From assembly GCF_003334385.1 (NCBI RefSeq), contig NZ_QOWN01000015.1: a stretch of DNA of 64,000 nucleotides; one strand, 5' to 3'. The stretch's first letter is position 1. Each line of letters opens with the position of its first letter. Shown here piece after piece: positions 1,826-64,000 of this stretch. Position numbers and translations under genes: made by a program. The DNA comes from Escherichia coli. GTDB lineage: Bacteria > Pseudomonadota > Gammaproteobacteria > Enterobacterales > Enterobacteriaceae. A model generated the notes under the pieces. That model was not told the DNA's origin. It was given only the letters and a program-made list of their open reading frames with translations, and did not search any database.

Positions 1826-4174
1826 ATGCTGAGTTTATACGAAAAGATAAAGATAAGGCTGATAATTTTATTTTTATTGGCAGCACTGTCATTTATTGGT
1901 CTTTTTTTCATCATTAACTATCAACTGGTATCGGAGCGCGCGGTAAAACGTGCCGATAGCCGCTTTGAACTTATTCAGAAAAACGTTGGCTATTTCTTTA
2001 AAGATATTGAACGTTCGGCCCTGACATTAAAGGACTCACTGTATTTATTAAAAAATACAGAGGAGATTCAACGCGCCGTGATTCTTAAAATGGAAATGAT
2101 GCCATTTTTAGACTCGGTGGGACTGGTACTTGATGATAATAAATATTATCTTTTTTCGCGGAGGGCGAATGATAAAATCGTTGTTTATCATCAGGAACAA
2201 GTAAATGGACCGCTTGTCGACGAGTCAGGGCGGGTTATTTTTGCCGATTTTAACCCATCGAAACGACCGTGGTCGGTGGCTTCAGATGACTCTAACAACA
2301 GCTGGAATCCGGCATACAATTGCTTTGATCGTCCGGGTAAAAAATGTATCTCTTTTACGCTACACATCAACGGCAAAGATCACGATTTGTTAGCGGTGGA
2401 TAAAATTCATGTCGATTTAAACTGGCGATATCTGAACGAGTATCTTGATCAAATCAGCGCTAATGATGAAGTTCTATTTTTGAAACAAGGCCATGAGATC
2501 ATTGCCAAGAATCAACTCGCTCGTGAAAAACTGATTATTTATAATAGCGAAGGTAATTATAATATTATTGATTCTGTCGATACTGAATATATCGAAAAAA
2601 CATCAGCGGTGCCAAACAACGCATTATTCGAAATCTATTTTTATTATCCTGGCGGTAATTTATTGAACGCATCAGATAAACTTTTTTATCTGCCGTTTGC
2701 GTTCATTATTATCGTATTGCTGGTGGTTTATTTAATGACCACTCGTGTGTTCCGTCGGCAATTTTCTGAAATGACAGAGCTGGTTAATACGCTGGCGTTT
2801 TTGCCTGACTCAACGGATCAAATCGAGGCTCTGAAAATTCGTGAAGGCGATGCGAAAGAGATTATCAGCATCAAAAATTCGATCGCGGAAATGAAAGATG
2901 CCGAAATTGAACGGTCAAATAAATTGCTCTCACTGATCTCTTACGATCAGGAAAGTGGTTTTATTAAAAATATGGCGATTATTGAGTCTAACAATAATCA
3001 GTATCTGGCTGTGGGGATCATCAAACTGTGTGGTCTGGAAGCCGTGGAAGCGGTGTTTGGTGTTGATGAGCGCAATAAAATCGTCAGGAAATTGTCTCAG
3101 CGAATTGCCGAGAAATATGCGCAATGCTGCGATATCGTGACATTCAATGCCGATCTCTATTTACTTCTGTGTCGGGAAAATGTACAGACATTTACCCGTA
3201 AAATAGCGATGGTAAACGATTTTGACAGCAGCTTTGGCTACCGCAATCTGCGCATCCATAAGTCTGCCATTTGTGAACCTTTGCAGGGGGAAAACGCCTG
3301 GAGTTACGCAGAAAAACTGAAACTGGCGATTTCCAGTATCCGTGACCATATGTTCTCAGAGTTTATTTTCTGTGATGACGCGAAACTCAACGAAATAGAA
3401 GAGAATATCTGGATTGCGCGTAATATTCGCCATGCAATGGAAATTGGCGAACTATTCCTCGTCTATCAACCGATCGTTGATATTAACACCCGCGCCATTC
3501 TGGGCGCGGAGGCGTTGTGCCGTTGGGTGTCTGCGGAGCGGGGGATCATTTCACCGCTGAAGTTCATTACCATTGCTGAAGATATCGGGTTTATCAATGA
3601 GCTGGGTTATCAGATTATTAAAACGGCAATGGGTGAATTCAGACATTTTAGTCAGCGTGCGTCGCTGAAGGATGATTTCTTACTGCATATTAATGTTTCG
3701 CCCTGGCAGTTAAACGAACCACACTTTCATGAGCGTTTTACCACCATCATGAAAGAAAATGGCCTGAAGGCGAACAGCCTCTGTGTTGAGATCACTGAAA
3801 CCGTGATCGAGCGAATTAATGAACATTTTTATCTCAATATTGAACAACTGCGTAAACAAGGGGTACGGATATCGATTGATGACTTTGGCACCGGTTTGTC
3901 AAACCTGAAACGTTTTTATGAAATTAATCCAGACAGCATAAAGGTGGACTCGCAATTCACCGGCGATATTTTCGGTACTGCGGGAAAAATTGTGCGCATT
4001 ATTTTCGACCTGGCACGCTATAACCGGATCCCGGTGATTGCGGAAGGCGTAGAGAGCGAAGACGTTGCGCGCGAATTAATCAAATTAGGATGTGTTCAGG
4101 CTCAGGGGTATCTGTACCAGAAACCCATGCCATTCTCCGCCTGGGATAAAAGTGGAAAATTAGTAAAAGAGTAG
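1826..4174 (+). CDS. pdeI: c-di-GMP phosphodiesterase PdeI (YliE), EAL domain with N-terminal membrane/periplasmic region
   Basis: ORF 1748..4174 trimmed to ATG at 1826 (782 aa); C-terminal EAL domain with intact EAL motif (GAEALCRW). Confidence 0.88.
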
Positions 4175-4181
4175 TTTACGT

Positions 4182-5510
4182 ATGTCCAGAATCAATAAGT
4201 TCGTACTTACAGTCAGTCTGCTGATTTTTATCATGATTTCAGCAGTTGCCTGCGGGATCTACACTCAAATGGTAAAGGAACGGGTGTATAGCCTGAAACA
4301 GTCCGTTATTGATACTGCTTTTGCGGTGGCAAATATTGCTGAATATCGGCGTAGCGTGGCAATTGATCTTATCAACACGCTAAATCCCACGGAGGAACAG
4401 CTGTTGGTTGGTTTGCGCACAGCTTACGCCGACTCGGTTTCCCCCTCTTATTTGTACGATGTCGGTCCTTATCTGATTTCCAGTGACGAATGTATTCAGG
4501 TAAAGGAGTTCGAGAAAAATTATTGTGCAGATATTATGCAGGTTGTGAAGTATCGACATGTCAAAAATACAGGGTTTATCTCTTTTGACGGTAAAACCTT
4601 CGTCTATTACCTCTATCCGGTAACTCACAATCGTAGTCTGATATTTTTGCTTGGTCTGGAGCGTTTTTCTTTACTGTCAAAATCGCTGGCGATGGACAGC
4701 GAGAACCTGATGTTCTCTCTATTTAAGAACGGTAAACCGGTGACCGGTGATGAATATAATGCTAAAAACGCCATCTTCACCGTTTCGGAAGCGATGGAGC
4801 ACTTCGCCTATTTGCCGACCGGATTGTATGTATTTGCGTATAAAAAAGATGTTTATTTGCGGGTTTGTACATTGATTATTTTCTTTGCCGCATTGGTGGC
4901 AGTGATATCGGGTGCCAGTTGCCTCTATCTGGTACGCAGAGTGATTAATCGTGGTATTGTGGAGAAAGAAGCCATCATTAATAACCATTTTGAACGCGTA
5001 CTGGATGGCGGGCTTTTCTTTTCGGCTGCCGATGTCAAAAAACTCTACAGTATGTATAACTCGGCGTTCCTGGACGACCTGACCAAAGCAATGGGCAGAA
5101 AATCCTTTGACGAAGATTTAAAAGCGCTGCCGGAAAAAGGCGGTTATTTGTGCCTGTTTGACGTCGATAAATTCAAAAACATTAACGACACCTTCGGTCA
5201 TTTGCTGGGCGATGAAGTGTTGATGAAAGTGGTGAAAATCCTTAAATCACAGATCCCGGTAGATAAAGGTAAAGTCTACCGCTTCGGCGGTGACGAATTT
5301 GCGGTGATTTATACGGGTGGAACGCTGGAAGAGTTGCTATCGATTCTAAAAGAAATCGTTCATTTCCAGGTGGGAAGCATTAATTTAAGTACCAGTATCG
5401 GTGTAGCACATTCAAATGAATGTCCTACCGTCGAACGCTTGAAAATGCTGGCGGATGAGCGGCTGTATAAGAGTAAGAAAAACGGCAGGGCACAGATTAG
5501 CTGGCAGTAA
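4182..5510 (+). CDS. dgcI: Diguanylate cyclase DgcI (YliF), GGDEF domain
   Basis: ORF 442 aa; canonical GGDEF motif (RFGGDEF); starts 8 nt after pdeI stop. Confidence 0.92.
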
Positions 5511-61976: not shown

Positions 61977-61992
61977 CTGTTAATCCATACAG
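61977..61992 (+). promoter_or_regulatory. LexA box (SOS operator) in the lrp-ftsK intergenic region
   Basis: CTGT-TAATCCAT-ACAG fits CTGT-N8-ACAG, about 80 nt upstream of ftsK start. Confidence 0.7.
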
Positions 61993-62070: not shown

Positions 62071-64000
62071 TTGAGCCAGGAATACACTGAAGACAAAGAA
62101 GTCACATTGACAAAGTTAAGTAGCGGCCGCCGCCTTCTGGAGGCGTTGCTGATCCTTATTGTCCTGTTTGCCGTCTGGTTGATGGCTGCCTTACTAAGCT
62201 TTAACCCTTCGGACCCCAGCTGGTCGCAAACGGCCTGGCATGAACCTATCCATAATTTAGGTGGGATGCCCGGTGCGTGGTTGGCAGATACGCTGTTCTT
62301 TATTTTTGGCGTGATGGCTTACACCATTCCCGTCATTATTGTCGGCGGTTGTTGGTTTGCCTGGCGTCATCAGTCCAGCGACGAATACATTGATTATTTT
62401 GCCGTTTCGCTACGCATCATTGGCGTTTTGGCGCTCATCCTTACCTCCTGTGGTCTGGCGGCAATCAACGCTGACGATATCTGGTATTTTGCCTCCGGTG
62501 GCGTCATTGGCAGCTTACTAAGCACTACGCTACAACCACTGCTACACAGTAGCGGGGGAACTATTGCGCTGCTCTGCGTTTGGGCAGCGGGCCTGACGTT
62601 GTTCACCGGTTGGTCATGGGTGACCATTGCTGAAAAACTCGGCGGCTGGATTTTAAACATTCTCACCTTCGCCAGTAATCGTACCCGTCGCGATGATACC
62701 TGGGTCGATGAAGATGAGTATGAAGACGACGAAGAGTATGAAGATGAAAATCACGGCAAACAGCATGAATCACGCCGTGCCCGTATTCTTCGCGGCGCGC
62801 TAGCGCGTCGTAAACGGTTGGCGGAAAAATTCATTAATCCGATGGGGCGGCAAACAGACGCTGCGTTGTTCTCCGGTAAGCGGATGGATGATGACGAAGA
62901 GATTACCTACACTGCACGCGGTGTGGCTGCCGACCCGGACGACGTCCTATTTTCGGGCAATCGTGCAACGCAGCCAGAATATGACGAATACGATCCATTA
63001 TTAAACGGTGCGCCAATTACCGAACCTGTCGCTGTAGCAGCTGCTGCTACCACGGCGACACAAAGCTGGGCTGCGCCGGTTGAACCTGTGACTCAGACGC
63101 CGCCTGTTGCCTCTGTTGATGTTCCACCTGCGCAACCTACAGTAGCCTGGCAGCCTGTACCGGGTCCACAAACGGGAGAGCCGGTTATTGCTCCTGCACC
63201 GGAAGGTTACCCACAGCAGTCACAATATGCGCAGCCTGCAGTGCAATATAATGAGCCGCTGCAACAACCAGTACAGCCGCAGCAGCCGTATTATGCACCT
63301 GCAGCTGAACAACCTGCGCAACAGCCGTATTATGCCCCTGCGCCAGAACAACCGGTGGCAGGTAACGCCTGGCAAGCCGAAGAGCAGCAATCCACTTTTG
63401 CTCCACAGTCTACATACCAGACTGAGCAAACTTATCAGCAGCCAGCCGCTCAGGAGCCGTTGTACCAACAGCCGCAACCCGTTGAACAGCAGCCTGTTGT
63501 GGAGCCTGAACCCGTTGTAGAAGAGACAAAACCCGCGCGTCCGCCGCTTTACTACTTTGAAGAAGTTGAAGAGAAGCGAGCCCGTGAACGTGAACAACTT
63601 GCGGCCTGGTATCAACCGATTCCAGAACCGGTTAAAGAACCAGAACCGATCAAATCTTCGCTGAAAGCACCTTCTGTTGCAGCAGTACCTCCAGTAGAAG
63701 CCGCTGCCGCTGTTTCCCCGCTGGCATCTGGCGTGAAAAAAGCGACACTGGCGACGGGGGCTGCCGCAACCGTTGCCGCGCCAGTCTTCAGTCTGGCAAA
63801 TAGCGGTGGACCGCGTCCTCAGGTCAAAGAGGGGATTGGTCCGCAGTTGCCACGACCGAAACGTATCCGCGTGCCAACTCGTCGTGAACTGGCGTCTTAC
63901 GGTATTAAGCTGCCCTCACAGCGTGCGGCGGAAGAAAAAGCCCGTGAAGCCCAGCGCAATCAGTACGATTCTGGCGATCAGTACAACGATGATGAAATCG
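62071..64000 (+). CDS. ftsK: DNA translocase FtsK, N-terminal membrane domain and Pro/Gln-rich linker; 3'-truncated by window edge
   Basis: Frame 1 open from TTG at 62071 (GGAG RBS at 62059-62062) to window end; translation (M)SQEYTEDKEVTLTKLSSGRRLLEALLILIV... recognised; absent from ORF track because there is no in-window stop. Confidence 0.9.
   Translation, partial: MSQEYTEDKEVTLTKLSSGRRLLEALLILIVLFAVWLMAALLSFNPSDPSWSQTAWHEPIHNLGGMPGAWLADTLFFIFGVMAYTIPVIIVGGCWFAWRHQSSDEYIDYFAVSLRIIGVLALILTSCGLAAINADDIWYFASGGVIGSLLSTTLQPLLHSSGGTIALLCVWAAGLTLFTGWSWVTIAEKLGGWILNILTFASNRTRRDDTWVDEDEYEDDEEYEDENHGKQHESRRARILRGALARRKRLAEKFINPMGRQTDAALFSGKRMDDDEEITYTARGVAADPDDVLFSGNRATQPEYDEYDPLLNGAPITEPVAVAAAATTATQSWAAPVEPVTQTPPVASVDVPPAQPTVAWQPVPGPQTGEPVIAPAPEGYPQQSQYAQPAVQYNEPLQQPVQPQQPYYAPAAEQPAQQPYYAPAPEQPVAGNAWQAEEQQSTFAPQSTYQTEQTYQQPAAQEPLYQQPQPVEQQPVVEPEPVVEETKPARPPLYYFEEVEEKRAREREQLAAWYQPIPEPVKEPEPIKSSLKAPSVAAVPPVEAAAAVSPLASGVKKATLATGAAATVAAPVFSLANSGGPRPQVKEGIGPQLPRPKRIRVPTRRELASYGIKLPSQRAAEEKAREAQRNQYDSGDQYNDDEI

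Follow-up and report, generated by a model that had tools for sequence, protein, structure and literature searches.

Introduction

Two lines of earlier work come close to the repeat array described here. In strain typing, the locus ms06 is said to originate from the Shigella/E. coli MLVA panel of Gorge et al. 2008, and the locus CVN001 reportedly belongs to the generic E. coli MLVA of Lindstedt 2007. On the side of the protein, the work of Bigot 2004 and Dubarry 2010 on FtsK_L, a PQ-rich unstructured linker of ~640 aa, is said to concern large linker deletions and differences between species rather than within-species steps of 13 aa.

Among 80 E. coli isolates, ms06 was described with a 39-bp unit, amplicons of 301-379 bp, alleles 2, 3 and 4, and a Simpson's diversity of 0.63 (PMC8215070). 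In Shigella flexneri the same locus is called SF33 and has alleles 2-4 (PMC2806262). It is already in practical use as a PCR size marker for typing strains of E. coli and Shigella. The loci ms07, CVN001 and, in Salmonella, STTR7 and SENTR2 share with ms06 the gene, the linker, the 39-bp length of a Pro/Gln-rich unit and the polymorphism, although ms07/CVN001 differs from ms06 in having more alike units and many more alleles (1-12). A further likeness is to contingency loci, in which repeat number also changes within a coding region. As for the linker itself, FtsK_L is, according to reviews, unstructured and PQ-rich, varies among species in length and composition, and is required for full activity and for divisome contacts (PMC5357621; PMC3870252).

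Here we describe an array in ftsK within a 64,000-nt stretch of E. coli DNA (the window, meaning the whole stretch analysed). The array is an already known, published strain-typing marker. We hold with high confidence that it is the two-copy allele of the 39-bp coding minisatellite ms06, whose copy number would change rarely, mostly by deletion and probably with near-neutral effect. What we add are exact allele counts for 5426 genomes, the detection of a rare allele with one copy, and a reading of the polymorphism as the loss of old, diverged units and not as continuing expansion.

The array in ftsK and its identity with ms06

The coordinates of the array and of the features around it are collected in Table 1. 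The sequence-only reading had assigned the gene to ftsK, and this was borne out both by the Pfam match and by the K-12 gene: over the 901 nt in which the array lies, the window matches annotated ftsK of K-12 MG1655, and that of many other strains, at 100% identity. In MG1655, RefSeq annotates the gene as 'DNA translocase FtsK', with a CDS start that corresponds to the start in the window, and the full K-12 gene measures 3990 nt (1329 aa). The array segment carries the annotation 'ftsK: DNA translocase FtsK' in 5426 of 5426 complete E. coli genomes. Gene order at the K-12 locus (L007) is trxB-lrp-ftsK-lolA-rarA, and in the window lrp likewise lies just upstream. The FtsK_4TM match, obtained with the translation of 62074-63999 as query, covers model positions 2-171 of 171; the array lies between this membrane domain and the DNA-pumping motor, and is thus inside the linker described as FtsK_L. 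The Pro/Gln-rich linker around the array is presumably disordered, and a PDB sequence search returned no solved structure matching the array segment. In a search of the literature, nothing turned up on the sub-regions FtsK179-331 and FtsK332-641 of Dubarry 2010.

Table 1. Features of the ftsK region, in window positions
Feature	Position	Strand	Remarks
ftsK coding sequence, 5' part	62071-64000, past window end	+	TTG start, no stop
FtsK_4TM membrane domain (PF13491)	62128-62643	+	Pfam, residues 19-190, E 2.3e-42
ms06 forward primer site	63170-63189	+	AAACGGGAGAGCCGGTTATT; exact match, unique in window
73-aa ORF	63185-63406	-	antisense; spurious
110-aa ORF	63188-63520	+	+2 frame relative to ftsK; spurious
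131-aa ORF	63220-63615	-	antisense; spurious
Repeat unit 1	63280-63318	+	CAGCAGCCGTATTATGCACCTGCAGCTGAACAACCTGCG = QQPYYAPAAEQPA; same as U1 of 4-copy alleles
Repeat unit 2	63319-63357	+	CAACAGCCGTATTATGCCCCTGCGCCAGAACAACCGGTG = QQPYYAPAPEQPV; 1 nt from U4 in the 4-copy allele of L001
ms06 reverse primer site	63451-63470	-	TGTTGGTACAACGGCTCCTG; exact match, unique in window

The array proper occupies 63280-63357 and consists of two in-frame 39-bp units, the first encoding QQPYYAPAAEQPA and the second QQPYYAPAPEQPV, which together form residues 404-429 of FtsK counted in the ftsK frame from the TTG start at 62071. Their 13-aa consensus is QQPYYAPA(A/P)EQP(A/V). Tandem Repeats Finder, with a default threshold of score 50, reports 63278-63353 at period 39 with 1.9 copies, 86% matches and a score of 117, and a second repeat search recovered the same pair of units, at 86% identity. 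The sequence-only reading had spread tandem repeats over 63150-63650 and quoted two near-repeat strings, which are indeed present (cagccgtattatgcacctgcagc at 63283 and cagccgtattatgcccctgcgcc at 63322) and encode these two units. The period-39 repetition is real, but its true extent is 78 bp. The rest of 63150-63650 is low-complexity sequence rich in Pro, Gln, Ala, Glu, Val and Tyr, with only short and weak echoes of the unit.

Both ms06 primers match exactly, and they predict an amplicon of 301 bp with two copies at 63170-63470, which grows by 39 bp with each further copy. The primer sequences were taken from papers that reuse Gorge et al. 2008 (PMC8215070), not from the original. Given that the primers match exactly and that the 39-bp unit, the 301-bp two-copy amplicon and the allele range 2-4 all agree with the published locus, we conclude that the array is ms06. 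Relative to the published description, our census adds the rare 1-copy allele and the unit-by-unit structure of the alleles.

The array was also considered as CVN001 of the generic E. coli MLVA, and this was rejected, because the CVN001 primers AACCGGCTGGGGCGAATCC and GGCGGCGGTGTCAGCAAATC flank another 39-bp array further downstream in ftsK. In L007 they map to 4776-4794 and 5201-5220, while the ms06 array lies at 3881-3958. This downstream array (L007 4889-5109) has 5.7 units of the QQPQQPVAPQQQY type in K-12, with 88% matches. The CVN001 primers map about 0.9-1.35 kb past the ms06 array, and the array that they flank lies beyond the window end. Judging from whole-gene lengths, the downstream array is also length-variable among the fetched strains.

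Copy number among complete genomes

The sequence-only reading had supposed that linker length may vary between strains, and it does, in 39-bp steps at the array. When 40 systematically sampled genomes were compared with the 901-nt segment, the match spanned 901, 940 or 979 nt, each in about one third of the genomes. A protein alignment of six fetched alleles confines the whole-unit differences to the array, where one or two complete 13-aa units are inserted or missing exactly. The changes in copy number are always of whole 13-aa units and always in frame; since each unit comprises exactly 13 codons, the ftsK reading frame is never lost.

For a census of 5426 complete E. coli genomes we used allele-specific queries, each consisting of the array with 150-nt flanks, and set E-value cut-offs between full-length and partial matches; query coverage was unusable for counting alleles because pieces get joined. 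One copy was found in 13 genomes, two copies in 1730, three in 1846 and four in 1826, so that 5415 genomes were classified and 11 were not. Stricter cut-offs had given 1666 genomes for three copies and 1796 for four; the final 1846 and 1826 were obtained with other reference alleles and relaxed cut-offs. All inspected census rows, the weakest included, were single-piece, full-length matches. A synthetic 5-copy query matched 0 of the 5426 genomes, and alleles with at least 6 copies could hide only among the 11 unclassified ones. The three common alleles thus stand at 32, 34 and 34%, which gives a diversity of ~0.67, although RefSeq genome sampling is strongly biased and such frequencies mirror which clones get sequenced.

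In one 1-copy genome that was retrieved, ftsK is annotated and intact, and its array consists of the unit QQPYYAPAPEQPV alone. Copy number differs between related strains, CFT073 and Nissle having 3 copies and ST131 4, and O157:H7 having 2 and O145 4. At the same time, 1669 of the 1730 genomes with two copies share at least 99% identity with K-12, and each copy class is dominated by a few haplotypes. Given that copy number differs within phylogroup-level lineages and yet a few haplotypes dominate each class, the changes appear to be rare events and not the output of a hypermutable tract.

Whole-gene ftsK lengths range from 3951 to 4107 nt among the fetched strains. In one of them, strain A13 (L006), an in-frame 9-bp deletion at about window position 63750 removes 3 residues from KKATLATGAAATV; it is unrelated to the repeat. 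Of the 5430 places matched by the ftsK segment, 8 belong to records that carry a plasmid label, and in a few genomes the segment matches twice; these could be mislabelled replicons or duplications.

Age of the units and direction of change

Comparison of any two units within the 4-copy alleles shows differences at 8-11 of the 39 nt (72-79% DNA identity). Across the six unit pairs of a 4-copy allele there are 35 synonymous and 14 non-synonymous codon differences. Divergence mostly at synonymous sites marks the duplications as old, and the retention of the unit peptide despite it points to some purifying selection, so that the unit may be more than a spacer.

The shorter alleles can be described in terms of the four units (U1 to U4). 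The allele of K-12 and of the window consists of U1, which is identical, and U4, with 1 difference, and is without U2 and U3. The 2-copy allele of STLEFF_29 consists of U1' and a U2/U4 hybrid; since this make-up differs from that of K-12, the second 2-copy allele has an independent origin. In the 3-copy alleles the last unit is a U3/U4 hybrid, while the only unit of the 1-copy allele combines U1 and U4 in a hybrid of the K-12 type. Slippage starting from U1 and U4 would yield only identical copies, and the diverged extra units are therefore not recent expansions. No expansions were found among the alleles inspected. The shorter alleles, that of K-12 among them, look as though they arose by deletion, with hybrid units left behind, and on the evidence of 8 sequenced alleles parsimony favours a 4-unit ancestor from which units were lost.

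The sequence-only reading had called the repeats prone to slippage. Copy number does vary, but with units only 72-79% identical the array is no highly unstable slippage tract, and the variation inspected fits rare deletions of old units. A hypermutable slippage tract or contingency locus was accordingly ruled out as a candidate on three grounds, namely the divergence of 8-11 of 39 nt, the in-frame alleles and the dominance of a few haplotypes in each copy class. Unlike contingency loci, the array shows diverged units, few alleles and no on/off switching.

We propose that misaligned pairing of neighbouring units, by replication slippage or unequal recombination, would rarely change the copy number, and that most such events would be deletions. 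Each event would alter the flexible tether of ~640 residues by 13 aa (~2%), a change that would probably be close to neutral for the function of FtsK. The array would then illustrate how the long disordered linker of an essential division protein tolerates the loss of whole 13-residue modules. The analysis gave no sign that a difference of 13-39 residues in the linker would alter the coupling of septum closure to chromosome clearing by FtsK.

A possible function of the 13-aa unit

The alternative that survives best takes the 13-aa unit to be a functional module, for instance a short binding motif for a divisome partner or a tuner of length, with 2, 3 and 4 copies kept by selection as adaptive states. 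We regard this as unlikely. It would account for a peptide that is conserved while its synonymous sites have diverged, and for three alleles at about one third each with the extremes rare (1 copy) or absent (5 copies); the near-equal frequencies could indeed also reflect selection. Furthermore, parts of the linker have been reported in contact with FtsQ, FtsL, FtsI and FtsZ (PMC5357621). The more specific proposal, in which the number of QQPYYAPAxEQPx modules tunes linker length or contacts with divisome partners and selection holds the copies at 2-4, is more doubtful still; if true, it would explain why the three alleles are about equally frequent and why the unit peptide is conserved.

Several observations weigh against such a module. 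The allele frequencies are subject to the sampling of sequenced clones noted above, and ftsK is intact and annotated in the 13 E. coli genomes that have a single unit. In Salmonella Enteritidis, a two-unit indel swapped between strains in the other, sister ftsK array had no effect in the one phenotype assayed (PMC6137255). The unit, moreover, does not extend to Salmonella or Klebsiella. A protein search with a 221-aa segment of the linker returned no full-length FtsK, only fragments of at most 377 aa, of which many are frameshifted; in the Salmonella and Klebsiella fragments recovered the 13-aa unit is absent and the composition alone is kept, in the form of other P/Q/Y-rich sequence. In the Salmonella fragments the flanks APEGY…QYAQP and RPPLYYFEEVEEKRAREREQLAAWYQPIPEP are retained and an unrelated P/Q/E-rich stretch replaces the units, while the Klebsiella fragments have their own repeats of the AYQPEPAP type at the site of the array. 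A close relative (P0022, P0036) has a single unit, QQPYYASAPEQSV. Since the unit is missing from these Salmonella and Klebsiella sequences, we take it to be specific to Escherichia. An Escherichia-only unit would fit a role in composition and length better than a conserved binding motif, even though E. coli strains do conserve the peptide, and a near-neutral coding minisatellite remains the reading that we prefer.

The island RPPLYYFEEVEEKRAREREQLAAWYQPIPEP, which follows the PQ-rich stretch, is 31 aa long (63538-63630) and near-unchanged in Salmonella, Klebsiella and Raoultella. On either side of it the sequence is not kept in those fragments. The island could be a functional part of the linker that has been conserved.

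Assembly, overlapping frames and composition

That the differences in copy number are assembly artefacts, with repeats collapsed or expanded, appears very improbable. Repeats are known to cause errors in assembly, and many of the fragmentary database proteins from this region carry frameshifts. However, the array measures only 39-156 bp and its units are diverged, which makes it easy to assemble; each common class comprises 1700-1800 complete genomes from many laboratories; and PCR sizing in independent MLVA studies gives the same alleles of 2, 3 and 4 copies.

Long open reading frames overlap the array on both strands (Table 1), as the sequence-only reading had said in calling them spurious and ascribing them to codon bias. 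They are by-products of composition, although the cause lies in amino-acid and base composition and not in codon bias as such. T makes up 17% of the bases over 63148-63648 and seldom occupies the first two codon positions, and it is this low T content that leaves the other frames stop-free. The frame of the 110-aa ORF contains only 1 stop over 500 nt, and over 63148-63648 the +1 and -0 frames have one stop each. One of these ORFs, of 110, 73 or 131 aa, could in principle be a real overlapping gene, but we give this hardly any credence. Comparison of seven alleles yielded 50 polymorphic sites, of which 40 occupy the third position of an ftsK codon, a concentration which shows that ftsK is the frame under selection. 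In addition, no feature but ftsK lies under the match among the RefSeq annotations listed for the 5426 genomes, and database proteins that resemble the +2 frame are FtsK fragments made chimeric by frameshifts.

These chimeras (P0027, P0029, P0038 and P0047) open with FtsK-frame sequence and then switch to the +2 frame, which is free of stops (RQNNRWQVTPGKPKSSNPLLLHSLHTRLSKLIS); frameshift errors in assembly are their probable source. For annotation, the stop-free frames explain odd 'hypothetical proteins' that arise from frameshifted reads of the region.

The weakest alternative, that there is no true repeat and the likeness of the units arose by chance from the Pro/Gln/Ala-rich composition of the linker (Q 30, P 26 and A 17 among 126 residues around the array), can point to the low-complexity surroundings and their several short, weak echoes, but deserves practically no weight against 0 of 2000 codon shuffles reaching the observed tandem score (18, with a shuffled maximum of 12) and a series of alleles with 1-4 whole units at exactly this site. 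The shuffles, 2000 each, were run on the entire linker part of the gene and separately on its PQ-rich core; as they never reach the observed score, the array is real and no by-product of composition.

Two further elements were seen in and near the 5' part of ftsK. Directly after the membrane domain, at 62707-62754, there is an acidic near-repeat, DEDEYEDDEEYEDE, with a 9/18-bp period and a Tandem Repeats Finder score of 37, which is unchanged across seven aligned alleles. In the lrp-ftsK intergenic region, at 61977-61992, the sequence CTGTTAATCCATACAG forms a LexA-box-like site of the form CTGT-N8-ACAG; ftsK has an SOS-inducible promoter upstream (dinH), and this site probably belongs to it.
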